A model generated the notes under the pieces. It ran no database searches and had not been told where the DNA came from. It saw only the letters and a program-made list of their open reading frames with translations. A DNA stretch of 14,133 nt from Promethearchaeota archaeon (GTDB taxonomy: Archaea; Asgardarchaeota; Thorarchaeia; Thorarchaeales; Thorarchaeaceae): the NCBI GenBank assembly GCA_048939765.1, contig JBHLPF010000056.1, positions 1-14,133 of the forward strand. Reading direction: 5' to 3'. Positions 1-14,133 of this stretch are shown here, in pieces (the stretch's first letter is position 1; each line of letters starts with the position of its first letter). The translations under genes were made by a program, and so were the position numbers.

Positions 1-243
1 CGTGAATCCAGGCATTGAGGAATCGAAAGAGGTTGTGCCGTGTGCGGAGTATAGGCCATTCAATGTGACAGGTAATGATTCCGCAGTTCCTTCAAAAGAC
101 CCTTCGCCTTCCGCTGAATAGTTTGAATCGTTCTCTGGTAAAGGATATTGCAGCCCTGATGCACCTATTAGAGGTGTTGGTCCTTCAATCGATGGTGCAA
201 GAAAGAAGAGTATAATCACTGTAAGTGCGGCAATTCTTTTCAT
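1..243 (-). CDS. Secreted/surface protein, N-terminal part only (runs off window edge)
   Basis: Not in ORF track. ATG at 243 opens 81 codons to the edge: MKRIAALTVIILFFLAPSIEGPTPLIGASGLQYPLPENDSNYSAEGEGSFEGTAESLPVTLNGLYSAHGTTSFDSSMPGFT. Signal peptide (KR + hydrophobic core), N-X-S sequons NDS and NYS, G-rich RBS-like GGGTTGGTTGGG just upstream. Confidence 0.8.
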   Translation of the reverse strand, partial: MKRIAALTVIILFFLAPSIEGPTPLIGASGLQYPLPENDSNYSAEGEGSFEGTAESLPVTLNGLYSAHGTTSFDSSMPGFT

Positions 244-306
244 CCCAACCAACCCTTTGTGACTGCAATTAGCCCGCCTATACTATCACATACACTCATC
301 AAGCAG

Positions 307-354
307 GAGAGCAAACAGAATGCTCTCGAAGAAATGAAAAATAAACTATCTTCG
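307..354. promoter_or_regulatory. Two adjacent inverted repeats upstream of the secreted-protein gene (possible operator or terminator)
   Basis: GAGAGCA-N7-TGCTCTC (307-327) and CGAAGA-N16-TCTTCG (327-354). The second encloses an A-rich tract that reads TTTATTTTT on the minus strand. Confidence 0.35.
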
Positions 355-435
355 TCTATTCGAACCTATTATACATCAATATATACATTAAAAGGCAAAT
401 AGATTGAACCACTGATTGGAGAACTAGACGCTCTT

Positions 436-1005
436 CTATGGTTTCTGCCAATCTGTGATGAATGTCTTTGCAGCTTTTATCCAAGTCTGAACCATCTCAA
501 TAGTGAACTCATAGCCTTTTGGAACTTCAACGGCTCCGTCTGCCACGGCCTGAGTCACTTTCATCAGAAGAACATCTGCATCAGAGTTCGCTAAGTCTTG
601 GTAATTCCTAATTCCCACTTGGACAATAGCTTCCGAGTCCTCCTCCGAAATACCTTCCAACCAGCAGAATCGGCTCATGGCTTGCCACTTCGCCGCCATA
701 TCTTCTGATACGTCACAAATCCTAGCAACTTGAATGGTGCCTGCTGCGAGTAGATCTTCCACAGTTACGATACCAGCCCTCCGCAGCTTTCGACCATAGG
801 CTGATCCAATTCCTTCAATCGTTTCAATTGGTAGTTCTACCAGTTTTGCAGCTGGTTCTTCAACCTTGGGCACATACTCCTCTGTAGAAGTTTCCTCTTT
901 CGAGCCCTTTGCATAAGACGCAGCTTCTTTTTCAGCTGAGCCTCTCAAGCAGGCAACTCCTATGACTAGAGGAGCTAATAGCAGATATATCAGAAAAGGA
1001 TCCAT
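436..1005 (-). CDS. Membrane-anchored helix-hairpin-helix protein (DUF4332-like)
   Basis: Likely start ATG 1005 (MDPFLIYLLLAPLVIGVAC) with AAGGTGG RBS upstream. N-terminal TM helix, acidic linker, then tandem HhH-like repeats IETIEGIGSAYGRKLRRAGIVTVEDLL and LEGISEEDSEAIVQVGIRNYQDLA, ending VQTWIKAAK. Confidence 0.75.
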   Translation of the reverse strand: MDPFLIYLLLAPLVIGVACLRGSAEKEAASYAKGSKEETSTEEYVPKVEEPAAKLVELPIETIEGIGSAYGRKLRRAGIVTVEDLLAAGTIQVARICDVSEDMAAKWQAMSRFCWLEGISEEDSEAIVQVGIRNYQDLANSDADVLLMKVTQAVADGAVEVPKGYEFTIEMVQTWIKAAKTFITDWQKP

Positions 1006-1151
1006 TAAGTCTTCCACCTTACCAACAGAATAATACTGGTTGCTAACCCTCCATAAAGAACCTTCGCTGAATTTGTCCCTGAATCCTTTCACTTCAGTCT
1101 GCTGATGGTTTATCCAGAATCATATTATTAATAGAAGCGGACAAAACGAAA

Positions 1152-1631
1152 TTGCAGGTGTCACATGAAGTGCGACTTCCGGGGACAAATATCGAGGTCT
1201 TGGTTAGTTCCAATATCATTGAGATTCGAGATAATGATTATCTCCAGAGTATAGAATACAGTGGGAAGAAGTATGAGGACGTCCTCGATGAGATTCAACG
1301 CATAATGCACAACCGGGGCTGGGAGATTACGAAGCGTGTGATCAAATTTGTGTTGGATAGACTTGGCTTGCCAGAGGTTGAGTATTTTCCACCAGGTGAG
1401 CTGAGTGCCAATGAAGACACAGGCTTGAGTGAGATGATTGACAGCATAAAGGAACTCACAGGCCTAGAGGCTGAGGAAGCGAAAGCGCTCGCCGCTGAGG
1501 GCGAAAAGGATCTCAATTTCAAATTCCATGCCGAGAACGTCCCAAAGGAAGAGCCTTCTTCACAGCGGAATCACCAATCCAAGGATTCGAGTTTTGATTG
1601 GGAAGAAGCTCCTTCAGTTGGTTCTGAGTAG
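1152..1631 (+). CDS. Hypothetical protein: globular N-terminal ~80 aa plus acidic low-complexity tail
   Basis: 159-aa ORF filling the gap before AOR, TTG start (GTG 1158 is an alternative), AT-rich TATA-like TATTATTAATA at 1123-1133. No family recognised. Confidence 0.65.
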   Translation: MQVSHEVRLPGTNIEVLVSSNIIEIRDNDYLQSIEYSGKKYEDVLDEIQRIMHNRGWEITKRVIKFVLDRLGLPEVEYFPPGELSANEDTGLSEMIDSIKELTGLEAEEAKALAAEGEKDLNFKFHAENVPKEEPSSQRNHQSKDSSFDWEEAPSVGSE

Positions 1632-1693
1632 CTCGCCGCATTCTAAGATTTTCAAACCTATATGCGACATGCATCATTATTCATAACACTAGC

Positions 1694-1701
1694 ATAAATA
1701 G
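1694..1701 (+). promoter_or_regulatory. TATA-like box upstream of AOR
   Basis: ATAAATAG about 45 nt upstream of ATG 1745 in an AT-rich intergenic region. Confidence 0.35.
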
Positions 1702-1744
1702 AGTCTTTCCCATATATTAGGTCATTAGGGGGTTTTCACGAGAG

Positions 1745-3526
1745 ATGAGTAAAATTCTGCGAGTCAACATGACTGATATGAGTCACAAGTGGGAGGATGT
1801 GCCATCCGCCTATGAGACATTAGCTGGACGCGCTTTTACGTCTGCTGTTGTCAATGTAGAGGTTGAAGCGACGTGTCACCCGCTTCGTGAAAAGAACAAA
1901 TTCGCTATTTCGCCTGGCCTGCTGGCCGGAACTCTTGCACCATCCTCAGCACGATTAAGTGTTGGGGGGAAGTCACCAATGACGGGAGGCATAAAGGAGG
2001 CAAATGCCGGAGGTCTCACTGGGACAAGACTTGCTCGAATCGAAGTTAGGGGAGTTATCATCGAGGGAATGCCAAAGGATGACAACTGGTATAGCCTACT
2101 CATACGGAAGAACAAGGCAGAGATTGTGAAGTCAAACGATTATGCTGGCATGGGTCTCTATGATCTTATTGCGAAGATCTGGAAAGACTACGATTCCAAG
2201 CCAGGAATAATTGGGTGTGGGATCGCAGGGCAGCGACTTCTCACAAACGCAGGTATATTTGGCAACAACATCGAGAACTCGGATCCCGGTCGATATGCTG
2301 GTCGGGGCGGGCTTGGTGCTGTTCTTGGATCCAAGCACATTGTGGCTATCATAAGTGATGATACTGGCGGAAGTCGTCCCGAGGCCAGGGAAAAAGACAA
2401 ATTTGAGATGGGCAGGAAAAAGCTCGTAGCAGCATTGAACAAGCATCCTGTAACAGGGAAGCTCAAGGATGACAAGGGCAAGCCATTTGGCGGACTGAAG
2501 AACTATGGCACCAATATTCTTCAGAATATTATCAGTGAGGCAGGAGGTCTCCCAACAAGGGGCTTTCGTTCCGGTCGATTCGATAAAGCTGCAAAGATCT
2601 CTGGAGAAGCTGTCCATGCACTGGTTGATAAGTGCAAGGAGAAGTACGGCGACAAGTCAGAGGGGCGATATGGCCACCCATGCCATCCGGGATGCATAAT
2701 GGCATGCTCCAACGTCGTGCCTTACGAAGATTCAGGGAAGCTCCATGTTGCACCGCTTGAATACGAGTCAGCTTGGTCGCTCGGGGCAAACCTTGATATC
2801 GGAGTCCTCGACGATGTTGCAGAACTCAATCGATTGTGTAATGATATCGGTCTGGATACAATTGAGGCTGGCAACACCATTGCGATGTTCATGGAGGGCG
2901 GTGTTATCCCATTTGGAGATGGTCCTGCAGCGATCGAGCTGCTGAAGAAGGCCTATGATGAGAAGTCTGTGGAAGGCAAGCTTGTCTGTTCGAGCGCACA
3001 GATTGCTGGCGAAACTCTTGGTGTATCTAGAATTCCATCGGTGAAAGGACAGGCACTTCCTGCATATGACCCGCGACCGATTAGAGGAATTGGTGTTACA
3101 TATGCAACCTCCACAATGGGAGCTGATCACACGGCCGGATATACCATAGCAGCTGAGATTCTTGGCGTAAAGGGTAAAGTGACAGACCCACGAAGTCTTG
3201 ATAAAGCGGAGCTTTCACGCGCATATCAAGCCACAACGGCCTACATTGATTCGACCGGCTACTGTCTATTCATCGCATTCTGCATCTTGGATGATGATGA
3301 CGGATTTGCCGGAATGAAGGACACTGTCGACTCCTTCCTCGGCATGAAGATTGATGTCACAGAGTATGGCTCAGCGATTCTTAAGAACGAGCGGGAGTTC
3401 AACAAGAAAGCTGGCTTCACGAATAAGGACGACAGGTTGCCTGAGTTCTTCTATACCGAGCCATTGCCGCCACACAATGTGGTCTTTGAAGTCAGCGATG
3501 AAGAGCTGGATAAGGTGCACGGATAG
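1745..3526 (+). CDS. aor: Tungsten-dependent aldehyde:ferredoxin oxidoreductase (AOR family)
   Basis: MSKILRVNM start, KSPMTGGIKEANAGG, AGRGGLGAVLGSK, [4Fe-4S] ligands CHPGCIMAC and DSTGYC, EYES, CNDIGLDTI, VKGQALPAYDPR, GADHT, DDRLP; 593 aa. Confidence 0.97.
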   Translation: MSKILRVNMTDMSHKWEDVPSAYETLAGRAFTSAVVNVEVEATCHPLREKNKFAISPGLLAGTLAPSSARLSVGGKSPMTGGIKEANAGGLTGTRLARIEVRGVIIEGMPKDDNWYSLLIRKNKAEIVKSNDYAGMGLYDLIAKIWKDYDSKPGIIGCGIAGQRLLTNAGIFGNNIENSDPGRYAGRGGLGAVLGSKHIVAIISDDTGGSRPEAREKDKFEMGRKKLVAALNKHPVTGKLKDDKGKPFGGLKNYGTNILQNIISEAGGLPTRGFRSGRFDKAAKISGEAVHALVDKCKEKYGDKSEGRYGHPCHPGCIMACSNVVPYEDSGKLHVAPLEYESAWSLGANLDIGVLDDVAELNRLCNDIGLDTIEAGNTIAMFMEGGVIPFGDGPAAIELLKKAYDEKSVEGKLVCSSAQIAGETLGVSRIPSVKGQALPAYDPRPIRGIGVTYATSTMGADHTAGYTIAAEILGVKGKVTDPRSLDKAELSRAYQATTAYIDSTGYCLFIAFCILDDDDGFAGMKDTVDSFLGMKIDVTEYGSAILKNEREFNKKAGFTNKDDRLPEFFYTEPLPPHNVVFEVSDEELDKVHG

Positions 3527-3542
3527 ACACACGAGTCTAGAC

Positions 3543-3571
3543 AGGGGAGCTAACGCTCCCCTCTATCTTTT
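3543..3571 (+). terminator. GC-rich hairpin plus T-rich tail after aor
   Basis: Perfect 8-bp stem AGGGGAGC-TAAC-GCTCCCCT (3543-3562) followed by CTATCTTTT, 16 nt after the aor stop. Confidence 0.7.
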
Positions 3572-3624
3572 GAAAAGGCCAATATCTCATACCTTATCAG
3601 GAGCAACCACAAAGGAGACTCAGC

Positions 3625-3933
3625 ATGATCGAGATTCACCTCTACGGATGTCTCCGTGACCTTGTAACCGGAAGTCGTCCAGATGAAGACACCGTGCTAT
3701 ACCGTGAGGTGACTTCAGAGCAGACATTTGCTGATCTCATTTCTAGCCTCGGCCTCACAAAGGATGAGATTGGGGACTGCTTTATCAACGGGACATTGGC
3801 AAAACTGGATGATCCGATAAAGGATGGCGATCGAATTGGGATGTTCCCATTCAATATGGTTCTTCTTTGTGGCGGTCAACATTTGAAAGGGCATGGCTAT
3901 ACTAAGGATGACGTTGATGTTGACTACTATTAG
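3625..3933 (+). CDS. MoaD/ThiS-family beta-grasp (ubiquitin-like) protein with C-terminal extension beyond GG
   Basis: AAGGAG RBS at 3612-3617. MIEIHLYGCL start, FING, IKDGDRIGMFP fit the MoaD/ThiS pattern. LLCGG is followed by QHLKGHGYTKDDVDVDYY. Confidence 0.85.
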   Translation: MIEIHLYGCLRDLVTGSRPDEDTVLYREVTSEQTFADLISSLGLTKDEIGDCFINGTLAKLDDPIKDGDRIGMFPFNMVLLCGGQHLKGHGYTKDDVDVDYY

Positions 3934-3942
3934 GTGACACAT

Positions 3943-4185
3943 ATGAGAGTGAGTGTGAAACTCTATGCGACCCTTCAAGAATATTCGCCTCCTGAAACAG
4001 AACTGGGTAAGGAATTCTCAGTGGACCTAACGGGGAGAACTGTTATCGAACTTCTGTCCAAACTGGGAATCAAAGATGAGCAGGCAAAAATAGTCATGGT
4101 GAACGGAATCCGCATTGATACCTTGAGTTATGAATTGAAAGAGAATGATTTGATTGTGATATTCCCGCCTATTGGTGGCGGCTAG
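3943..4185 (+). CDS. MoaD/ThiS/SAMP-family sulfur carrier (ubiquitin-like)
   Basis: AGGTGA RBS (3932-3937) overlaps the upstream stop, supporting ATG 3943. VKLYATL, VMVNG, LKENDLIVIFPPIGGG with free C-terminal Gly-Gly. Confidence 0.93.
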   Translation: MRVSVKLYATLQEYSPPETELGKEFSVDLTGRTVIELLSKLGIKDEQAKIVMVNGIRIDTLSYELKENDLIVIFPPIGGG

Positions 4186-4198
4186 AAGTCTTACTCAA

Positions 4199-4339
4199 AT
4201 CTTGATTCACCTCGACATGCAGGAAGATTGGAATAGCAGATGTGCAAGTGAACCTTCGCTCCCTTCCTGTGAAGCAGGCGATAGAATCGAGTTACGTCCA
4301 ATTGGCCTTGGTTTAGAATATGGCGGACATCTTAAGTAG
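4199..4339 (+). pseudogene. Decayed, internally deleted copy of the extended MoaD-like gene (3625-3933)
   Basis: Reads ILIHLD...GDRIELRPIGLGLEYGGHLK* versus MIEIHLY...GDRIGMFPFNMVLLCGGQHLK. GATTCACCTC is shared (3633-3642 and 4204-4213). About 40 codons are missing and there is no equivalent start/RBS. Confidence 0.65.
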
Positions 4340-4381
4340 AGGCACGTAGAGTCATTTTGATTGCTCTGGGTGAGCTCCTTG

Positions 4382-4621
4382 ATGGTCAATGTGAAGCTAT
4401 ATGCAGGCTTGAGGAAATTCATGCCAAGTGATACTGAACTAGGCGATTTCTTTCAATACGAATTTCAGGGGAGCACGGTAAGCGATCTGTTAAAGACACT
4501 TGGCATAAAGGAAGTGCACGTACAAAATGTCATGATCAACGGGGAGCGGGCCATCGACTTCAGTGAGACTCTAGCTAAAGACGATCTTGTATCGATCTTT
4601 CCGCCCATTGGTGGCGGTTAG
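4382..4621 (+). CDS. MoaD/ThiS/SAMP-family sulfur carrier (ubiquitin-like), paralog of 3943-4185
   Basis: GGTGA RBS at 4369-4373, ATG 4382. VKLYAGL, VMING, DDLVSIFPPIGGG. About 39/78 identities to the upstream paralog by hand alignment. Confidence 0.93.
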   Translation: MVNVKLYAGLRKFMPSDTELGDFFQYEFQGSTVSDLLKTLGIKEVHVQNVMINGERAIDFSETLAKDDLVSIFPPIGGG

Positions 4622-4644
4622 CTTATGGCCAAAGGATTACTGAA

Positions 4645-5922
4645 TCAAATCTTGAGAATGAAACGCGGCATCAGGCGGGCCACGATTTCACACATATTGA
4701 GATTCACTGCTCTTCTGACAACCTCTCGTCCTCTATAGCTATACTCGAGTTCACGCGGATTAGAGAAGACCTTCTCCGATTCATGACCTGTCGACATGTC
4801 TGTGACATAGTGGCGTGTCCCTCCTTTTGATTCAATGACTCGATTGATTCCAAGAATTGAATCAAATTTGTATCCTCCACCATGCGGGAGGATATTGGCT
4901 CTTAGAAGCCGGTGAGAAACTCCGTATCTTTCAGCACGTCGTGTAAAACCGAGATGCTCCACTGCTTCAACATCGAAGTTGGGTTTGCCTTTCACAAGAT
5001 ATGCTGGTAGGTCTGCTCGAAGGGCAATTGGGAGCAAATTCCCGTCTTCCGTTATATTCTGACATCCCAGCAGATGATGATTCATGTTCTGAAGCCCTTG
5101 ATGTATAGGGTTGCATATTTCAGTGAACTCACCAAAAATGGCTTCAGCGGCATGAAGTCGTTTCTTTCTACTCAGCTCGCAGGCAAAGTCATTGAGCTTC
5201 AAGTACTCCACGGCAGCCTCGTCCTTGACCACCCAAGTCTTCCCAAATGGCGTATCAATTTCCTCGGCCATTTCACTAAGAATAGGGCTCTTGTGACGAT
5301 ATAATCCAAAACCGAAATGAGTGGAATTATCCCCTTTCAGCTCGGGGACGGATCCGTGAATGACGAAAATATACCTGTAGGAGGAATCAGCCTCCTCATC
5401 CAAAGGTTTGTGTCGATATAGGTCAATGAAGTGATTACTTACAGCGAAATCCCATTCAATGACGACGTCGTCTATGACCTCTTCCGATCCTAGAACCGTA
5501 CTGATATTGTCAATGAGCGAATCAATCTTTGGAAGATTATCGAGCCCACCAACGAGCATTCCACAGGCATTAGGCATGGAGTCAAGGAATATAACCTTCC
5601 TATCACCATCCCCCCAGGATAGCTTTCCCCCATAACCCAAACCGCTATTCCATCTTTTGACATTTCGAGTAACGGTCGCATCCGGAGCACCTACAAAGGT
5701 GGCATCAGGTTCCATGCCGAGCTGGAAAAGGGCATGATGGATTTTGGCCAATCCATATTTCATATTTGCGACACAGAGGGCATTTGCAGAATCCATCAGA
5801 CCACTTGAGAACACATGACCTGAGGCTCTGTCTAGCACATCATTTCGAGATAAAGATTCAAAATCTCTTGTCACTCTTTTCATCTCCAGATTCTTCCCAC
5901 TCATGGCAGACTGATTTGTCAC
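4645..5922 (-). CDS. Divergent RtcB-superfamily protein (putative metal-dependent nucleotidyltransferase/ligase)
   Basis: RtcB-like motifs in correct order: APDAT (D81), GLGYGG, PNACGM (C120), SNHFIDL (N163/H164), FVIHGS (H189), PIHQG (H274), LPHGGG (H347), ELEYSYR, C-terminal VARLMPRFILK. GTG start overlaps the upstream TGA (GTGA); ATG 5904 is an alternative. Confidence 0.75.
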   Translation of the reverse strand: MTNQSAMSGKNLEMKRVTRDFESLSRNDVLDRASGHVFSSGLMDSANALCVANMKYGLAKIHHALFQLGMEPDATFVGAPDATVTRNVKRWNSGLGYGGKLSWGDGDRKVIFLDSMPNACGMLVGGLDNLPKIDSLIDNISTVLGSEEVIDDVVIEWDFAVSNHFIDLYRHKPLDEEADSSYRYIFVIHGSVPELKGDNSTHFGFGLYRHKSPILSEMAEEIDTPFGKTWVVKDEAAVEYLKLNDFACELSRKKRLHAAEAIFGEFTEICNPIHQGLQNMNHHLLGCQNITEDGNLLPIALRADLPAYLVKGKPNFDVEAVEHLGFTRRAERYGVSHRLLRANILPHGGGYKFDSILGINRVIESKGGTRHYVTDMSTGHESEKVFSNPRELEYSYRGREVVRRAVNLNMCEIVARLMPRFILKI

Positions 5923-6575
5923 TGAGTTTCCACTAGTAGTTCTTCTCCGAAAAGGTCCTCAATGGAGGCCATCCTCGCGCTTAGGCGGTCTTCGACAACA
6001 AAAAGAAACTCAAGTAGTTCTTGATGCAGACTGTCTCCTAGCTCTTTGCTGACTTCGTAATTCAATTTGCCATAGTCATGCTTACGTTTCTCCATGTATT
6101 TGGTCATTATGCTCTCCATACTCCCCGTCTTACCAATAAAACCGCGAAGCAGTCCCATGAGACCAAGGCGGTCCAAGGTGTCTGCATCATAGACGATTTT
6201 TTCCTCTGGGGTAACTGGCGGTATCTTGGAGGTTGGAGTATGCCGGACAACTACTCGTGTAATTGTATCACGCACGTCCTTGTCAACATTGAGACCGTCA
6301 AGAAACTCCTCTGCTAGAGTACCCCCAAAGAGACCATGAATGTGTGAGAATACTCGATTGGTCTTACCAATGTCATGCATTAGAGCTCCAGCAATGCACA
6401 CAAACGGGTCGACGTCCTTGTCGATGTTCTTGGCAATCTCAATGGCATATTTACAGACCGTGAAGACATGAGAGTAGTCATGGCTGTCACTTTCTGCATG
6501 AGCCGCTCTCACAAACTCTTGCATCTGAAGCAACATCTTCAGCTCTTTCTCAGTTAGCATTCTTGCAAAGACCAT
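5919..6575 (-). CDS. HD-domain metal-dependent phosphohydrolase
   Basis: HDYSHVFTV, ALMHDIGK, SHIHG, VVRHT, VYDADTLD give a complete H...HD...H...H...D set. Start uncertain (ATG 6584, 6575 or 6560). Confidence 0.92.
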   Translation of the reverse strand: MVFARMLTEKELKMLLQMQEFVRAAHAESDSHDYSHVFTVCKYAIEIAKNIDKDVDPFVCIAGALMHDIGKTNRVFSHIHGLFGGTLAEEFLDGLNVDKDVRDTITRVVVRHTPTSKIPPVTPEEKIVYDADTLDRLGLMGLLRGFIGKTGSMESIMTKYMEKRKHDYGKLNYEVSKELGDSLHQELLEFLFVVEDRLSARMASIEDLFGEELLVETQ

Positions 6576-6715
6576 TTTGCTCATTCTAATATGGATGCAT
6601 TCCGAGTTAAAGAAATCGCACACACCTTTTATTCGACTTCTGTATCAAATATCAACCACATTAGATTCATAACATACCACTATCATTGTGTGTATGGTTA
6701 GGGAGACCGTGTAGG

Positions 6716-8332
6716 ATGACACCACCATCTGACCCATCAGAAGTATCTCCGGGATTTGATGAAGCGATGTATCTTGATATTCTTCGAGACAATCCGCCCC
6801 TGAAGCGCTATGTATCCCGGGGGGACACACGAGATTCAATTGATATCATTGGGCCCCACGAAGACGCTGACCGTGCAATCTTTCGAGCAATTCGTTTTAC
6901 AATGCAAGATGGCATTCCGCGATTTCAGCCTATTCTGGGAAGTGCTGGGATGGGAAAAACACACTTATTCTGGTCATTGAAAGACCGAGAAGACTACTTC
7001 AAAAGAGGAAGATTCCTGGCTGTCTATGTACCATCTCCTCCCGCTCCAATTCGCATTCCTCTTCATATTCATGCCTGTATTGTTGATACGGCAGGAGAAG
7101 ACATCTTCAATCAGGCTGTTGATATGCTATTGATTAAGTTTGGTGGTCTGGGTGGCGTTTCGCATGAAACATATGACTACACATATGCAATGGAGCGACT
7201 GCTATGCGACTATCCTGGAATATCGGCAGATGTTATGAAGACGCTTCTGAGGTATCGGCTAGACCCGGCTAACAGTGATCTTGCTAGACGCTGGCTTTTT
7301 GGTGATGCGCTCAGTAATGAAGAGATTGTTCGGCTTGGTGTTCGAACCGTATTGGAAGAAGACGATGTTACACTGGCAACCCTCAAGCTTCTTGCTGAAG
7401 GATCAACATTGCCTATCCTACTATTCATTGATGAGATGGAGGGACCATATAATACGCATGGCGAGGAAGCTGAGCGTCGGTTCTTTGAGACATTGAAGCG
7501 ACTATACAATGAAACACGAAACATCGTTATTGTTGCATCAAGTCTGACAGAGATCTGGGATCGGATCTATGAACTTGCTGATGCTCCGATGAAGTCTAGG
7601 ATGGAACGGGTGGTTCATCTACAGCCTTTTGAGAAGGACGATGTGGCTGAGTTCATTCATAAGACCATGAAAGAGTTCTGGACAGAACAGAATGTTGAGC
7701 CCCCTCCAGAGGCATTATTCCCATTCACCGAGAAGGACGTAGAAGAGATATTCGTAAAGTCGGATGGAGTGCCAAGGGATGCAATCAAACACGCGATCTC
7801 CAGACTGGATTCCATCCTATTTGAAAAAGAAGAGGTTGAGGTTGAGGAACAGCCAGACTATGTCATCAAGCTTACACCTACGGTTGTAATCAGTTCCATA
7901 ATCAAGGCGATGGAAGTGACAGGAAAATCCACGGGTATTGATGTGGAGATAGATGCAGATGCAACCAAGGCGACCAAGGAATCTACATCGATTGTCCTAG
8001 TTACAAAGGGTGGTGTCACCAGAAAGGTGGGAATTGATGTTCCTGGAGTTAAGGATTGGAATCGCAGTGGAGGTGTTGCGGCGTTCTATTCAGCAAAACG
8101 TCTTCAGAAACTAATCGAATCTGGTGCCATCAATATGGGAGTCATCGCTGTTCCAGAAGCCACTGCCGGTGCCAAATTCGAGGCAGCCCTAGATGACTAT
8201 GGTGACTCATTAGTTGCAGTTCGACTTACTGAAGAGAGTGGACTTGACTTAGTAGAACGCACTACAGAGGGCCGACTATTGAAGGCTCAGAAAGATATTC
8301 TTACTGGCATTCTAGAACCTATTTTTGATTGA
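6716..8332 (+). CDS. AAA+ P-loop ATPase (BrxC/BrxD-like) with unassigned alpha/beta C-terminal domain
   Basis: Likely ATG 6716. Walker A GSAGMGKT, Walker B LLFIDEME, sensor-1-like VIVASS, Arg-finger-like KSRME, FPFT and sensor-2-like GVPRDAIK. Large helical insert with ARRWLFG between Walker A and B. Confidence 0.85.
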   Translation: MTPPSDPSEVSPGFDEAMYLDILRDNPPLKRYVSRGDTRDSIDIIGPHEDADRAIFRAIRFTMQDGIPRFQPILGSAGMGKTHLFWSLKDREDYFKRGRFLAVYVPSPPAPIRIPLHIHACIVDTAGEDIFNQAVDMLLIKFGGLGGVSHETYDYTYAMERLLCDYPGISADVMKTLLRYRLDPANSDLARRWLFGDALSNEEIVRLGVRTVLEEDDVTLATLKLLAEGSTLPILLFIDEMEGPYNTHGEEAERRFFETLKRLYNETRNIVIVASSLTEIWDRIYELADAPMKSRMERVVHLQPFEKDDVAEFIHKTMKEFWTEQNVEPPPEALFPFTEKDVEEIFVKSDGVPRDAIKHAISRLDSILFEKEEVEVEEQPDYVIKLTPTVVISSIIKAMEVTGKSTGIDVEIDADATKATKESTSIVLVTKGGVTRKVGIDVPGVKDWNRSGGVAAFYSAKRLQKLIESGAINMGVIAVPEATAGAKFEAALDDYGDSLVAVRLTEESGLDLVERTTEGRLLKAQKDILTGILEPIFD

Positions 8333-8392
8333 ATATCATGGGAAGAGGAATTTCGTATAAAGGCCACTCTATGAGTTTCTCCGCATAGCAGG

Positions 8393-8974
8393 CTAGTTCT
8401 CTTGCTGACCATTTTCTGAAGAGTCAGGCGCAGCTGGTGCATCTTCCTCCTCCTCACCTTTGCAGACAAGTTCCGGCAATACGATGATTGCAATGAAAAT
8501 AAGAGCGATAACAGCCAAGCCCGTGGGAGTTCTGAGAAACATCGACACTTCTCCAAGATAGGGGATTCTCAATATCACGACGCCTATTATCTCATCTATT
8601 GTGCGATTACCGGGGTCATTTGCGTGATTCGCATCGCCTTTTGTGAAGAAGTAGTAGGTTTCGCCCACAATGTCGATTGCCACAACTCGATGAACAACCG
8701 GTGCATCGGGAAACCACTCATCCTGATACACGATAATGTCACTGAGATGTATGTCTTCGGCTGGCCGCCCTTGCAGCACCAGAAGGTCTCCTCGTTGGAG
8801 TGCTGGAACCATTGAATCACTTGTCACGACTACCAAAGGACTTGAGGTTCGCATGGTGAGTATGAAACCACCATAGCCCCCAATCGTGATTAGAACGACG
8901 ATGAAGAGTACTATGACAGTCTTTTGCATCTCAGAGCGGCTGTCCCATCCCAATGCTTGGCGCACTCGTTCCAT
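8393..8974 (-). CDS. sec11: Signal peptidase I, archaeal/ER type (S26B)
   Basis: N-terminal TM, VVTSDSMVP (catalytic Ser), RGDLL, VVHRV (His), TKGDAN..ND, C-terminal TM and acidic tail. Likely start ATG 8974. Confidence 0.95.
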   Translation of the reverse strand: MERVRQALGWDSRSEMQKTVIVLFIVVLITIGGYGGFILTMRTSSPLVVVTSDSMVPALQRGDLLVLQGRPAEDIHLSDIIVYQDEWFPDAPVVHRVVAIDIVGETYYFFTKGDANHANDPGNRTIDEIIGVVILRIPYLGEVSMFLRTPTGLAVIALIFIAIIVLPELVCKGEEEEDAPAAPDSSENGQQEN

Positions 8975-9093
8975 TACTTGTGCCTCGACAGATGAGAGGA
9001 ATTGTGGTTGACTAATAAAACTGACTGCGCTATTCTGCTCGACAAGCCTAGAACGCAACGTTAAACTGGGCGTAGCGAGTCTTCCATTATATC

Positions 9094-10233
9094 ATGAGCA
9101 GTCTATGGGTAAAGACGTGGAAAAGCACGCCTCAAATTGACTGTGGTCTTTGCGGAGAGGCGACCTGCGCCAGCTTTGCAAGGGCTTTGGTTGTAGGTAG
9201 GACTGAATTAGACAAATGTCCTCTTCTTGCCCTAGACAAATACAAAGACCGTCGAGAGGAGTTGGAGCATCTAAGCAAGAGAAGACCAAAACTGATAGGA
9301 AAGTCTGCGGCGAAGCTACCAGAAGGAGGAATGCTTCTCACACGTCCCTGTCAAGACACAGATGAAAAGGTCATGGCGGAACTCCGAGTGTTCAATGGTG
9401 TCGAAGCTGGCGAGCCGATTTACTTTGGAGTGTTTGAACCCTCGCTTCTCTGCGATTTCATGGACTGTATCGCGGATAGATTTGAACTAGTACGTTGCAG
9501 TAGAGACCTTGGATATGGCAGAGCAGAGATCGAAGACATGAGCATCACAATACTGCAAGATGGCAGAGTGAATATGAGGAGAGTCAGTGACGAGCAGCGT
9601 GTTTTAGACCTATTCAGACAGATTGAGCGTGCAATCTATGGTTCAATTATATGCAACTGCTGTGGCCATGATCTCCTCTCGGTGGTATCTGGATTTGCGC
9701 CACTAGAGAACGAACCCCATACTGTGCTTTCAGCTGGGAGCACACTTAGTCTAGACACTGAGATTCTTGAGAACAGAATGACTTCTCCTGAGATTAAATC
9801 TATCCTTCACAAGGCTGGAGTTATGGAGCACATCGAGACGGCTATCGAGCAGCTCAATGCGCTCCTTGCCAAGATTGATGCTAAGGACTTCTCAGCCACT
9901 TTCATGGATCATGACGCTGATTCAGGATTCTGCTCGATAGCGAATGTTGCAGTCAACAGCACTGACGATTCTCTATTCACCATCGCTGTGATTGCGCTGG
10001 CTCTGCTAAAGGCCGTTAATAATGCAGTAGCTGGGTTGTCAGAGATTCAAACTATATTTCGTGAAGGATCCGAAGCCCAAGTTGAAGCCGGACTCCAGCT
10101 ATTATCGAACGCGGAAGTCGGTCAATTGAATCCATCATTGGAATATTCAGATGATCTCATTGAGATAGTTGCGCACCTGACACGCGTAAATCGCACCATC
10201 AATTTACTTAGAGATCATGGCTGGAAATCCTAG
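9094..10233 (+). CDS. Fe-S cluster-binding domain protein of unknown function
   Basis: N-terminal PQIDCGLCGEATCASFARAL...KCP (CxxCxxxxC...CP, as in RnfB/AcsC N-terminal FeS domain). Extra Cys motifs TRPC, RCSRDLG, ICNCCG. Helical C-terminal region. TATA-like GTTAAAC at 9060-9066. Confidence 0.85.
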   Translation: MSSLWVKTWKSTPQIDCGLCGEATCASFARALVVGRTELDKCPLLALDKYKDRREELEHLSKRRPKLIGKSAAKLPEGGMLLTRPCQDTDEKVMAELRVFNGVEAGEPIYFGVFEPSLLCDFMDCIADRFELVRCSRDLGYGRAEIEDMSITILQDGRVNMRRVSDEQRVLDLFRQIERAIYGSIICNCCGHDLLSVVSGFAPLENEPHTVLSAGSTLSLDTEILENRMTSPEIKSILHKAGVMEHIETAIEQLNALLAKIDAKDFSATFMDHDADSGFCSIANVAVNSTDDSLFTIAVIALALLKAVNNAVAGLSEIQTIFREGSEAQVEAGLQLLSNAEVGQLNPSLEYSDDLIEIVAHLTRVNRTINLLRDHGWKS

Positions 10234-10688
10234 TGGGTCCATTCCTTTGTGGCCTTGTCAATAATCCTCTGCGCATTCGGGTGCTGAGCCGTGTCAATTC
10301 GCCACTCATGTACCCACTTCCACTCACCACTTGCCTGAATGAAATTCTGGAAGATCTTTAGGTTCTGCGCTTCAAGACGAGCACATTTCATAGCTTGGAT
10401 GTCATCACACCTGATAGGAGGACATATTGTCGAGCTAACAACATACCACAGATCCTCACCCAATTTCGTTGCTGCTATCACAGCTGGACATGGATCTATG
10501 TTCTCACGAAAGATTACTTGATCTCCCTCATTGATAGATACATCTCCTTCAACGATTGAGCCATCCTTTCTCCTAACGGTGGTGATAAAATCAGTTAGCA
10601 CCCTTTCAGCGCCTTTCTTGACATCATTCAAACTGGCCTTAACAACAATCCCTTCATATAATGCGGAACCTTCGGAACTCATCTTCAT
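10230..10688 (-). CDS. Hypothetical protein with four Cys
   Basis: GGAG RBS just upstream of ATG 10688; 152 aa; DPCP and CPPIRC...KC. Its stop overlaps the convergent gene's stop in CTAG (10230-10233). Confidence 0.75.
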   Translation of the reverse strand: MKMSSEGSALYEGIVVKASLNDVKKGAERVLTDFITTVRRKDGSIVEGDVSINEGDQVIFRENIDPCPAVIAATKLGEDLWYVVSSTICPPIRCDDIQAMKCARLEAQNLKIFQNFIQASGEWKWVHEWRIDTAQHPNAQRIIDKATKEWTH

Positions 10689-10830
10689 GACTCCAATTCA
10701 TCTATGATTAATGCAAGCAAATCACACTTTATCTTTTGCCGAAAGCAATCATCTATGTATTTTCTCGTCAGAACTAACCTTAGTCCTTAAAAGATGGCTT
10801 AGAAACTTGCACGGGTGCTCGGTGGATGAA

Positions 10831-12210
10831 ATGAGGATAACCCCGGTTCGCTCTGAAGGACTCGCACACCTCTCGTATTTTGTGAGCTCCGAAGGCGAAG
10901 CAATGGTAGTTGACCCTCGGCGTGATGTCGACGTGTATCTGGATTTGGCGGATAAGAGTCAATCAAGAGTCACTCACATCTTTGAAACGCACCGAAACGA
11001 GGACTATGCGATTGGGTCTCTTGAATTGCAGTATCATGTCCCACTCGTTGAGATTTGCCATAGTAAGGAAACCAGATTCAAGTATGGAAACCATTCACTC
11101 ACTCATGAGGATTCATTCAGAGTGGGATCCATGAAAGTCACTTGCCTCCATACCCCTGGACATACAGATGATAGCATGTGCTACCTACTCTCGGACATGT
11201 CAGTGAGTGCCAGCCCTATAGTTATCTTCACGGGAGACACACTCTTTGTTGGGGAGGTGGGAAGAACAGATCTAGTTGACAAGAAGCGACATGAGGAGAT
11301 GTCTAGGAAGTTATACTCTAGTCTGCAAGAAACAATACTTCCACTCGGGGATGGCATCATAGTCTATCCAGGTCATGGTGCTGGATCCGTATGCGGCGGG
11401 GATATCGGAAAGAGGGAGTTCTCTACCATTGGTTTCGAGCGTAGTAATAGCAAGTGGTTGAGCTTGGACGAAGATGAATTTGTGCGAAGGAAATTGAGTC
11501 AGAGTCTCACATATTCCACGTACTTCAAGCACTGCGAATATCTCAATACTATTGGTCCTCCACTAATAGCAGAGCTTGCGACGCCTCGGGCTCTCGATCC
11601 AGAAACTCTTGACAAATTGAGAGGTGAGCCAGACCACGTTGTAGTAGATACGAGGTCTCCTGACTTCTTTGTCTGCGGTCATGTCCCCGACGCAATTAGT
11701 GCACCTCTCAAAGATATGGGACTGTTTGCTGGATGGGTAATGGAGCCAGATTGGAAATTCCTGTTGGTATTGGAGAGGAGTGAAGATCTGCAATTGGCAA
11801 GGAGTATCTTGCTAAGAATTGGATTTGACAATGTTATTGGGTATTTGGGATCTGGAATGGACGGATGGTATGAGACGGGAAGACCAAGAAGCACCATCAG
11901 AACCATTGATTTGGACGTCTTGAAAGATGTCTTTGAAACTGGAACTCTGGAGATGGTTGATGTGCGCCAACCACATGAACAAGAACGGGAGTATATTGAA
12001 GGTTCGAAATTCATTCCATTGACAGATATTAGGGCGCAGTCTTCTGAAATCGATCAGGAACAATCTATTGTGACCATGTGTCCAGGCGGAGTCAGAGCAA
12101 CAGCAGCGGCGAGCTTGCTGAAGAGAGCAGGACATGAGAACATTTCAGTTTCTCTTGATGGAATCAAGGGGTGGAGGCAGAAAGGCTATCCGATTAAAAC
12201 TCAGGAGTAG
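10831..12210 (+). CDS. MBL-fold persulfide-dioxygenase-like domain fused to two rhodanese domains (CstB-like)
   Basis: GGTGG RBS, ATG 10831. VVDPRRD, FETHRNEDY, HTPGHT, FTGDTLF, YPGHGAGSVCG. First rhodanese (VVDTRS...GHVPDA) lacks an active-loop Cys; second (VDVRQ...CPGGVRA...LDGIKGW) has it. Confidence 0.92.
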   Translation: MRITPVRSEGLAHLSYFVSSEGEAMVVDPRRDVDVYLDLADKSQSRVTHIFETHRNEDYAIGSLELQYHVPLVEICHSKETRFKYGNHSLTHEDSFRVGSMKVTCLHTPGHTDDSMCYLLSDMSVSASPIVIFTGDTLFVGEVGRTDLVDKKRHEEMSRKLYSSLQETILPLGDGIIVYPGHGAGSVCGGDIGKREFSTIGFERSNSKWLSLDEDEFVRRKLSQSLTYSTYFKHCEYLNTIGPPLIAELATPRALDPETLDKLRGEPDHVVVDTRSPDFFVCGHVPDAISAPLKDMGLFAGWVMEPDWKFLLVLERSEDLQLARSILLRIGFDNVIGYLGSGMDGWYETGRPRSTIRTIDLDVLKDVFETGTLEMVDVRQPHEQEREYIEGSKFIPLTDIRAQSSEIDQEQSIVTMCPGGVRATAAASLLKRAGHENISVSLDGIKGWRQKGYPIKTQE

Positions 12211-12255
12211 AATTCGTAGGGATTATCGACACAATAGAGGAAGGTGAATCATTGT

Positions 12256-13839
12256 ATGTCACAGGGATTCTCAGGTCGTTCCGACGTGCTTGCAAAGAAT
12301 GGTCTTGTAGCGACTTCTCAGCCTCTAGCCACGCAAGCTGGACTCAGGGTGCTTCAAGCTGGTGGGAACGCCATCGATGCGGCAATCGCAGCAGCAGCCG
12401 TCCTCGATGTTGTAGAGCCGTTCAGCACGGGATGTGGCGGGGATGCATTTGCATTGATTCATATGCCAGGAGCAAAGAAGCCCTTAAGCTACAATGGTTC
12501 AGGGCGGGCGGGCTCTCTTGTATCCTTTGAAGAACTCAAGGAAAAGGGATGGACTGAGATACCTCTGCTAGGTGGTGCATCTGTTACCGTTCCCGGTGCC
12601 ATGCATCTCTGGTTCTATCTTGTTGAGCAACATGGCTCTCTTGAAATGAGTGAGGTGCTTTGCGATGCTATCCATTATGCTAGAGAAGGGTTTCCGGTTT
12701 CCCCCATTATTGCCAGATCTTGGGCCGGAAATGTTGATGGTTTGCTGAACGACGCAGCTAAGGGCATATTCATGCCTAATGGTCGAGCTCCACTGACAGG
12801 CGACATAATGCGGAATAGGGATCTCGCTGCAACTTTTGAGCGTCTCTCAAGGGAGGGGGTGGATGCTTTTTATGCCGGCGACATAGCCGAAGCGATTGTC
12901 AACACCGTTCAGAACCATGACGGATTTCTCACTATGGATGATATGGAGCGGCACAGGTCTCTCCAGACGGAACCAATCTCTACAGACTATCGAGGACTTT
13001 GTGTATACGAGCATCCTCCAAACGGCCAAGGCTTTGCAGCACTCGAAATGCTCAACCTGATGGAAGAGTACAACATCTCAGGGTATGATTCCCTGGCGGC
13101 GGAGCGTTTCCACATTATGATTGAGGCCAAGAAACTCGCTTATGCGGACCTTATGCAGCATTGCGCGGATCCAGAATTCTACAAGGTTCCTATACCTCAG
13201 CTCATTTCCAAAGTGTATTCGAAAACTAGAGCTGAACTCATCAAAATGAATGAAGCATCTGGCTCTTTTAGAACAGGCATTCCATTGGGGCAAGATACAA
13301 TCTATCTTTGCACTGCCGATAGTGACGGACAAGCCGTGTCGTTCATCAATAGCTTGTACCTGGGTTTCGGAAGCGGGCTTGTTGTTCCTGGGACCGGAAT
13401 CAAGCTTCACTGCCGGGGTAACCTCTTTTCACTGGATCCTGGTCATCCGAATCGATATGAACCCGGAAAACTACCTTTCCACACAATCATTCCGGGTGCT
13501 CTCTATGAGGGAGATCACTTTCATGGCGTGTTTGGTATCATGGGAGGCGCGCACCAAGCCCAAGCACATGCTCAGTTTGTCAGCAATATTGTCGACCATG
13601 AGATGTCTCCACAACAGGCCATAGACCATCCTCGGTTCAATCACGATCAAGGTTCTAATACAGTGGCGGTAGAAGCGGGAGTTCCTCAGACCGTTCAAAT
13701 CGAACTCCTTCGACTGGGACATACCATCGTGGAATCACCCATGGCGGCTTTTGGTGGAGGACAGGCAATTCTCAGATGTGGCAGTGGTTGGATTGCGGGT
13801 TCCGACCATCGAAAGGATGGCATGGCCGCGGGCTTCTAG
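12256..13839 (+). CDS. ggt: Gamma-glutamyltransferase family protein (Ntn hydrolase)
   Basis: AGGTGA RBS 12242-12247. VATSQPLA, GGNAIDAAIA, GCGGDAF, VTVPGA, PPNGQG, autocleavage/nucleophile Thr in QDTIYL, GFGSG, PGKLPFHTIIP, GIMGG, GSDHRKDG. Confidence 0.95.
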   Translation: MSQGFSGRSDVLAKNGLVATSQPLATQAGLRVLQAGGNAIDAAIAAAAVLDVVEPFSTGCGGDAFALIHMPGAKKPLSYNGSGRAGSLVSFEELKEKGWTEIPLLGGASVTVPGAMHLWFYLVEQHGSLEMSEVLCDAIHYAREGFPVSPIIARSWAGNVDGLLNDAAKGIFMPNGRAPLTGDIMRNRDLAATFERLSREGVDAFYAGDIAEAIVNTVQNHDGFLTMDDMERHRSLQTEPISTDYRGLCVYEHPPNGQGFAALEMLNLMEEYNISGYDSLAAERFHIMIEAKKLAYADLMQHCADPEFYKVPIPQLISKVYSKTRAELIKMNEASGSFRTGIPLGQDTIYLCTADSDGQAVSFINSLYLGFGSGLVVPGTGIKLHCRGNLFSLDPGHPNRYEPGKLPFHTIIPGALYEGDHFHGVFGIMGGAHQAQAHAQFVSNIVDHEMSPQQAIDHPRFNHDQGSNTVAVEAGVPQTVQIELLRLGHTIVESPMAAFGGGQAILRCGSGWIAGSDHRKDGMAAGF

Positions 13840-13911
13840 GGATGTGAAATGCCGCTACCGGAAACATTGAACTAGTCCATAGCTAGCCACCTTCAGTCTA
13901 AGGTGATTCTA

Positions 13912-14133
13912 GTGGAGGAATACCGAGAAGAGAGTGACCTGTTAGGAACTAGGAAGATCCCCAAAGATGCCTATTGGGGTGTACAGACACTCAGGGCGCG
14001 GGAGAACTTCGGAGTGTCTCTTGTGAACCTGAATAACTATTCGACGCTCATTGAAACCTTGGCAATGGTGAAGAAGGCATGCGCTCTTGCAAATCGTGAT
14101 CTTGGCCATCTCTCAAAGAAGTATGCTGATGCC
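13912..14133 (+). CDS. aspA: Aspartate ammonia-lyase (fumarase/aspartase family), N-terminal part only
   Basis: Not in ORF track. AGGTGA RBS 13901-13906, GTG 13912: MEEYREESDLLGTRKIPKDAYWGVQTLRARENF...LAMVKKACALANRDLG. SDLLG and QTLRA.ENF favour AspA over FumC. Confidence 0.85.
   Translation, partial: MEEYREESDLLGTRKIPKDAYWGVQTLRARENFGVSLVNLNNYSTLIETLAMVKKACALANRDLGHLSKKYADA

Follow-up and report, generated by a model that had tools for sequence, protein, structure and literature searches.

To our knowledge, RtcB is the only known type of enzyme that seals 3'-phosphate ends via a His-GMP intermediate, and the members studied so far all act on RNA or DNA ends. With GTP and Mn it joins a 3'-phosphate or a 2',3'-cyclic phosphate to a 5'-OH. 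Bacterial RtcB paralogues such as RtcB2 are ordinary members of the Pfam family PF01139 that have kept the RNA-binding residues and are accompanied by RNA-linked partners. RtcB2 of E. coli belongs to the RtcB2–PrfH ribosome-repair module (PMC9223846). In the active site of RtcB the metal M1 is held by Cys98, His234, and His329 and the metal M2 by Asp95, Cys98, and His203; His404 attacks GTP at its alpha-phosphate, and Asn202 and Asn330 contact the phosphates (PMC9745838, PMC8051266). The guanine-specific contacts are made by Lys480 (to O6) and Glu206 (to N1/N2) (PMC9745838), and the strand carrying the 5'-OH is held by Arg238, Arg190, and Gln194 (PMC8051266). Here we describe an RtcB-like gene of a Promethearchaeota archaeon (GenBank assembly GCA_048939765.1), located on contig JBHLPF010000056.1, positions 1 to 14,133; this whole stretch of 14,133 nucleotides is referred to as the window. 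The gene belongs to a strongly conserved and so far undescribed branch of the RtcB superfamily, and judging from its sequence the product probably applies RtcB chemistry to another substrate.

An earlier inspection of the window by eye (the sequence-only reading) had pointed to an open reading frame of 425 codons at 4645-5922 with the RtcB motifs in altered form. This reading frame is present, on the minus strand, and all the motifs quoted are found at the numbers given: SMPNACG at 115-121, N163-H164, H189, H274-Q275, ALRADLPAY at 300-308, H347-GGGY-351, Y396, and K424, the last being one residue from the C-terminal end. We keep this numbering of 425 amino acids throughout, although the probable product comprises 409 amino acids.

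Predicted fold of the RtcB-like protein

The AlphaFold2 model of the RtcB-like protein, calculated with a 25-sequence alignment, has a mean predicted local distance difference test (pLDDT) score of 89.3 and a predicted template modelling score of 0.88. All 16 Foldseek matches of the model at E <0.001 were RtcB chains (best E 8.7e-9). VIA-align superimposed it on RtcB structures from Pyrococcus horikoshii, T. thermophilus, human, and zebrafish with Z 19.7-23.0 and a root-mean-square deviation (rmsd) of 3.2-3.5 Å over 300-315 residues at 13-16% identity. The best set (4DWQ, 1UC2, 2EPG, 7P3B, and 9I8V) gave Z 22-23 over about 310 residues at an rmsd of 3.3 Å, and the next unrelated fold reached Z 5.7. 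As both programs match the model to RtcB structures only, the RtcB fold proposed by the sequence-only reading is borne out for the predicted structure.

At the sequence level the relationship is visible only between profiles. Pairwise BLASTP against the RtcB of the same genome found no significant match, and searches of PDB sequences with phmmer and hmmsearch returned no RtcB. With low-diversity profiles hhalign yielded an E of only 0.054, which is below significance, and its global mode produced a meaningless end-to-end overlap. A profile of 62 family sequences compared to one of 34 RtcBs was aligned over 309 columns with a probability of 90.5% and E 1.3e-6, and a second comparison, of a 40-sequence alignment with 20 RtcBs, gave 89.6% and E 1.9e-6. 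No match was found in Pfam (E 0.01), NCBIfam, PADLOC, or PHROGs; in the Pfam search the window protein did not reach the gathering score of PF01139, and a weak match to the Pfam RtcB family (E 0.007) was obtained for one of 40 diverse family members. Since PADLOC and PHROGs were empty for the protein, a role in defence or in phages was dropped.

Active-site residues and their conservation

The map of the active site that had been drawn by eye to P. horikoshii RtcB was reproduced by the two profile–profile alignments. In both of them C120 pairs with RtcB C98, H189 with H234, and H347 with H404. The alignment with E 1.3e-6 also pairs N163/H164 with N202/H203, Y396 with Y451, K424 with K480, D81 with D65, and D167 with E206. 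H274/Q275 correspond to H329/N330 in the alignment with E 1.9e-6 and in focused sub-alignments. This last pairing of H274 is absent from the full-length alignment with E 1.3e-6, which is of low confidence over that stretch. However, the model of the RtcB-like protein and that of the canonical RtcB encoded in this genome (pLDDT 94.7) have their strands and helices in matching order, with each of the mapped residues at the same point, and this agreement in secondary-structure order backs the pairing of H274 with H329. The clustering of the residues in an active site is predicted solely from the fold match and the alignment.

Conservation was counted over 135 unique members of the family. All 135 have H164, H189, H274, and H347, and C120 is found in 134. 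Consequently the M1 ligands of RtcB are all kept, as C120, H189, and H274, and of the M2 ligands the cysteine and the histidine (C120 and H164) are kept, but Asp95 is not. The counterpart of the nucleophilic His404 of the HGxG loop is H347 within PHGGGY, again in all 135 sequences. The column of Lys480 holds a lysine in 116 of the 135 sequences, and that of Glu206 an aspartate in 99, a glutamate in eight, and an asparagine in 13. The ratio of nonsynonymous to synonymous substitution rates (dN/dS) of the window gene compared to two relatives is 0.09, which indicates that the gene is under strong purifying selection. The invariant histidines, the nearly invariant C120, and the low dN/dS agree with the intact catalytic core that had been claimed before. 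Considering also the large number of homologues (below), the pattern goes well beyond a chance resemblance.

The sequence-only reading had further suggested that another nucleotide triphosphate might be used. This suggestion is not supported: as the guanine readers Lys480 and Glu206 are kept as K424 and, conservatively, D167, the sequence gives no reason to assume a nucleotide other than GTP. The shorter acid D167 may or may not preserve the specificity for GTP.

Differences from canonical RtcB

The RtcB-like protein was compared with canonical RtcB of PF01139 (4DWQ/1UC2, 2EPG, and 7P3B). Common to both are the fold, the bridging cysteine (C120), the three metal-binding histidines (H164, H189, and H274), the asparagine before the second histidine (N163, which together with Q275 maps to the phosphate-contacting positions), the nucleophilic histidine in the HGxG loop (H347), and, as mapped guanine contacts, the pocket tyrosine Y396, the C-terminal lysine K424, and an acid at the Glu206 position (D167). 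In contrast, the RtcB-like protein is only 13-16% identical to these structures, has no PF01139 match, and is about 70 residues shorter.

The altered motifs were confirmed: SMPNACG lacks the aspartate three residues before the cysteine, HN is replaced by HQ, and ALRADLPAY and HGGGY stand in place of the RtcB sequences. The column of Asp95 is K, M, or R in 66, 43, and 11 of the 135 sequences, or P117 in an ungapped register, and is never acidic. N118, two residues before C120, is present in 130 of 135 and might substitute for Asp95. The guanosine-pocket loop PGSMG..SY has become LRADLPAY, in which R302 and D304 are conserved, and HGAGR has become HGGGY with Y351 in 123 of 135 sequences.

The residues that hold the RNA strand in RtcB are missing as well. 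The column of Arg238 is P193 here and is variable across the family, and the helical insert 126-200 of RtcB, which bears Arg190 and Gln194, has no counterpart. The median isoelectric point (pI) of the family is 6.4 compared to 8.65 for canonical RtcBs. The absence of Arg238, Arg190, and Gln194 indirectly supports the proposal that the acceptor is altered, as does the lack of RNA-repair genes in the 80 neighbourhoods described below.

Distribution of the family

More than 1100 homologues were found at E <0.001, every one of them annotated as hypothetical and without Pfam domains. The identity is 84-91% to close Asgard relatives and is still about 50% to members from Desulfobacterales, Spirochaetota, Bathyarchaeia, and Methanocellales. 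When one genome per species was scanned, 161 species were positive, of which the best 80 loci were kept for neighbourhood work. All of these are from uncultured organisms, comprising Asgard, Bathyarchaeia, Methanocellales, and Korarchaeota-like archaea as well as Planctomycetota, Spirochaetota, Chloroflexota, Actinomycetota, Bacillota, Atribacterota, Armatimonadota, and others. In a tree of 76 members (quick maximum-likelihood search, midpoint root) the 32 archaeal and 44 bacterial sequences are separated by a branch with support 99. This split at the level of the domains does not support a recent inter-domain transfer as the cause of the identity of about 50%; therefore the high identity across the domains reflects constraint. 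Full-text literature searches found no description of the family. A length-based search, which is weak evidence, scored no longer fused forms of the protein.

Two observations on the gene copies were made in addition. In seven of seven genomes of the Asgard family f22 (G067, G107, G112, G124, G135, G141, and G144) a second, far more divergent RtcB-like copy (about 100-215 bits) is found beside the main one. An orthologue from the same genus (G139:C30:19825-21039) contains an in-frame TAA, and another Asgard copy (G097:C198:10120-11334) contains a TGA; these two copies may be pseudogenes or assembly errors.

Canonical RtcB in the same genome

The sequence-only reading had proposed that the enzyme does not act as the tRNA-splicing ligase and that a separate canonical rtcB should be looked for. 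The genome does encode a canonical RtcB (481 amino acids, 593 bits to PF01139) and Archease, both on other contigs. Canonical RtcB was found in all 41 sampled genomes of the phylum and in four of five bacterial genomes bearing the RtcB-like family, whereas the RtcB-like family is patchy: it occurs in 56 of 151 genomes of the phylum and in five of 26 genomes of the window's own taxonomic family. Because canonical RtcB is universal in the sample and the RtcB-like gene is not, the latter is an accessory, paralogue-like gene and not the housekeeping tRNA ligase.

In this respect the enzyme resembles E. coli RtcB2, an accessory RtcB-type enzyme that coexists with or replaces the housekeeping ligase and has a dedicated partner. 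Unlike RtcB2-type paralogues, the RtcB-like family lies outside PF01139, and no RNA-linked partner was found in its neighbourhoods. The partners also differ from those of canonical RtcB, which goes with Archease or RtcA, whereas the RtcB-like gene goes with a gene for an HD hydrolase.

The HD partner gene

Directly upstream of the RtcB-like gene and on the same strand a gene for an HD-domain phosphohydrolase is located (5919..6575, minus strand; 218 amino acids from the likely ATG at 6575, with an open frame to 6623). The protein matches PF01966 with E 1.9e-11 and 44.7 bits (cut-off 22), and the 31 partners compared all share the HD residues H26, H32-D33, H67-D68, H112, and D130. The nearest solved relatives are 2PQ7, YpgQ (5DQV), and YedJ (3GW7), with E 1e-9 to 2e-10. 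In size, HD motif set, and sequence the partner is similar to the YpgQ/YedJ group of stand-alone HD hydrolases; unlike these, it forms a tightly conserved group of its own, found in company with the RtcB-like gene. Alignment of archaeal with bacterial partners gave 44-49% identity (48% between Asgard and Desulfobacteraceae).

An adjacent and co-directional HD gene is present in 34 of the 80 loci and is the only widespread neighbour. Depending on the lineage it lies upstream or downstream, and it occurs on both sides of the archaeal/bacterial split. Nevertheless, the HD protein as an obligate partner was rejected: four of five checked genomes in which the genes are not adjacent have only weak generic HD matches, and the fifth has an HD orthologue 1.4 Mb away.

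Proposed substrate of the RtcB-like enzyme

As the fold and the catalytic histidines and cysteine are kept and the contacts to the RNA strand are lost, the enzyme probably applies the chemistry of RtcB to another substrate. With a transition metal and GTP it would form a covalent H347-GMP, from which GMP would be passed to a phosphate monoester of the substrate. Attack by a hydroxyl would then yield a phosphodiester and free GMP, or a GMP-capped product would be released. The YpgQ/YedJ-like HD hydrolase, where present, would strip phosphate or pyrophosphate from the substrate or the product. A comparable logic is known from the CDP-alcohol route, in which IPCT/DIPPS and a phosphatase make di-myo-inositol phosphate: a nucleotide triphosphate activates a phosphomonoester, a hydroxyl attacks, and a phosphatase step follows. 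The order of steps is the same as for RtcB chemistry combined with an HD hydrolase. This is a functional analogy only, drawn from general knowledge, since the folds are unrelated to those of the RtcB-like and the HD protein.

With regard to the acceptor we lean, at a confidence somewhat short of even, towards a small phosphorylated metabolite, from the metabolism of amino acids, osmolytes, or the envelope, instead of a canonical RNA strand, and favour it over nucleic-acid ends. Besides the loss of the strand contacts and the lower pI, this lean is based on ATP-grasp/aminomutase operons, a kinase fusion in a biosynthetic-looking cluster, and control by cyclic di-AMP (c-di-AMP) riboswitches. The operon context was examined with 131 further neighbours in the best 80 loci; as these loci stem from related genomes, the counts are not independent. 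Five loci, from at least three phyla, encode Ddl-like ATP-grasp ligases, eight in total. A KamA/AblA-type aminomutase is present in three of the five as well, the operons of aminomutase, Ddl-like ATP-grasp ligase, and RtcB-like gene being located at L113:2441-7866, L099:2599-7956, and L078:2665-6272; another, from Atribacterota, contains an Asp/Glu racemase together with a class IV aminotransferase. In the two Spirochaetales aminomutase loci an unannotated 203-amino-acid protein and a second ATP-grasp ligase follow; that the former is a hidden HD hydrolase was ruled out. The kinase fusion is a distant member, P0141 (743 amino acids), with an APH-family kinase domain at residues 57-268 and an RtcB-like domain at 340-730; its gene is surrounded by genes for two radical-SAM proteins, an aminotransferase, an SDR, and two HAD hydrolases.

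c-di-AMP riboswitches (RF00379) are located on the plus strand of three Actinomycetota loci at L069:4671-4800, L071:3813-3943, and L075:3906-4036 with 98-105 bits; a scan of about 570 kb of family loci against Rfam gave no other hits. They are on the same strand as the RtcB-like gene, directly upstream of it in L069 and in front of the preceding HEAT-repeat gene in L071 and L075. The latter two are sister sequences, so there are about two independent cases. Such riboswitches typically govern osmolyte, potassium, and envelope genes. Spelled out in full, the proposal would be that His-GMP activation of a small phosphomonoester gives a phosphodiester or GMP-capped metabolite in an osmolyte- or envelope-related pathway, which c-di-AMP switches off in Actinomycetota, and that the HD hydrolase trims the product. 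In this specific form the proposal is rather unlikely.

Several points weigh against a metabolite as acceptor. Apart from the HD gene, each of the neighbourhood signals is seen in only one lineage or a few, and the signals contradict each other. The operon in the window consists of the RtcB-like gene and the HD gene only and nothing local indicates a metabolite; therefore the local evidence does not choose among the readings. The loss of Asp95 could mean that the two-metal GTP chemistry is itself altered. YpgQ, the nearest characterised relative of the HD partner, acts on nucleotides. Finally, the RtcB-fold enzymes characterised so far all act on nucleic acids, whose 3'-phosphate ends they join or cap (PMC8051266, PMC10630183), and the DNA-repair enzyme Endonuclease Q follows the gene pair in six loci of one bacterial clade.

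These latter points lead to the reading which comes second and which we regard as possible, though doubtful: the enzyme could be a GTP-dependent 3'-phosphate ligase, or a capping enzyme, for damaged RNA or DNA with a non-canonical strand surface, and the HD hydrolase would heal the ends, for example by taking off 2',3'-cyclic or 3'/5' phosphates or caps. The precedent of the RtcB fold, the kept guanylylation apparatus, and the membership of the HD partner in the YpgQ/YedJ group are all in line with such a function. The genes for Endonuclease Q (5ZB8, E 1e-63) lie immediately downstream of the HD/RtcB-like pair at L103:6209-7444, L092:3089-4318, L097:6217-7452, L112:2542-3786, L115:6201-7436, and L091:1702-2616, with ETF and acyl-CoA dehydrogenase genes upstream. 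In eight Planctomycetota loci TetR and DksA/TraR zinc-finger genes are found, and the DksA/TraR-type gene precedes the RtcB-like gene. However, the link to Endonuclease Q is confined to a single Clostridia/Aerophobetes clade of the tree. Arg238, Arg190, and Gln194 are absent, the last two together with the deleted helical insert, and the family is more acidic than RtcB. No gene for RtcA, Archease, PrfH, Ro, or a toxin nuclease is among the 131 operon neighbours in the 80 loci, and c-di-AMP riboswitch control and ATP-grasp/aminomutase operons would be unexpected for RNA repair.

It is improbable that proteins or peptides are the target of nucleotidylation or phospho-ligation, with the RtcB-like protein as writer and the HD protein as eraser. 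Covalent His-NMP chemistry could in principle move the nucleotide to a phospho-amino acid or a hydroxyl, and ATP-grasp ligases, which are also able to modify proteins, recur as neighbours. No recurrent target protein is encoded beside the RtcB-like gene, though, and such a reaction is without precedent in the RtcB superfamily. As four of the five checked genomes with non-adjacent genes lack the HD partner, an obligate pair of writer and eraser is unlikely.

A redundant or back-up tRNA-splicing or RNA ligase with the same activity as canonical RtcB would agree with the shared fold and core residues but is very hard to credit, because the genome has intact genes for both canonical RtcB and Archease, the whole family lacks the strand-contact residues and the M2 aspartate, and the absence of the family from most genomes of the phylum, combined with an identity of about 50% across the domains, argues for a constrained function of its own.

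The RtcB-like proteins thus constitute a second family, deeply conserved in Archaea and Bacteria, which retains the nucleotidylation machinery without the parts that bind the strand and has an HD partner of its own; in some bacteria its genes appear to be under c-di-AMP riboswitch control. If active, these enzymes would represent either a new route of nucleic-acid repair or a use of RtcB chemistry on metabolites; should the favoured metabolite reading be true, they would be the first metabolite-directed members of the RtcB superfamily. The family occurs commonly in uncultured sediment lineages, the Asgard archaea among them, where it is annotated only as hypothetical. New here are the significant profile–profile link, the full residue map, the conservation in 135 sequences, the corrected start, and the domain-level split of the tree, as well as the Endonuclease Q link, the Ddl/aminomutase operons, the context of the kinase fusion, and the c-di-AMP riboswitch cases.

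Coding start of the RtcB-like gene

The open frame of the RtcB-like gene extends to 5922, but the coding sequence probably starts at the GTG at 5874 (4645..5874, minus strand, 409 amino acids), in which case the first 16 codons would be untranslated. Three observations suggest this start. First, direct reading of the sequence shows a ribosome-binding-like motif, GGAG at 5887-5884, 9 nt before the GTG. Second, the relatives L038 and L039 have an ATG at exactly this place, behind GGAGGTGA. Third, L039 has an in-frame stop codon inside the upstream extension. The nearest database entries are likewise 409 amino acids long. With the downstream start, a spacer of 44 nt (5875..5918, minus strand), which contains the GGAG motif, separates the RtcB-like gene from the HD gene; a 4-bp overlap of the two genes was therefore rejected.

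Further genes in the window and in related loci

A gene for a pyruvoyl-dependent arginine decarboxylase is located 2-3 kb away on the opposite strand in seven loci (L068:1825-2376, L079, L080, L084, L086, L090, and L094), six from Planctomycetota and one from Bathyarchaeota.

In the window, a gene for a 548-amino-acid ATPase (6686-8332, plus strand) is divergent from the HD gene; the protein has sub-threshold matches to archaeal ATPase_2, STAND, and BrxC, and its position beside the RtcB-like/HD pair is conserved in the closest relatives only. It is followed by genes for an S26 signal peptidase (8393-9058), a PF04060 Fe-S protein (9094-10233), a metallo-beta-lactamase and double-rhodanese protein (10711-12210), and a gamma-glutamyltranspeptidase (12244-13839). 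On the other side an aldehyde:ferredoxin oxidoreductase is encoded at 1745-3526, after which three small genes for ubiquitin-fold proteins of the ThiS/MoaD/Ub-Mut7C-like type are located at 3625-3933, 3934-4185, and 4361-4621.

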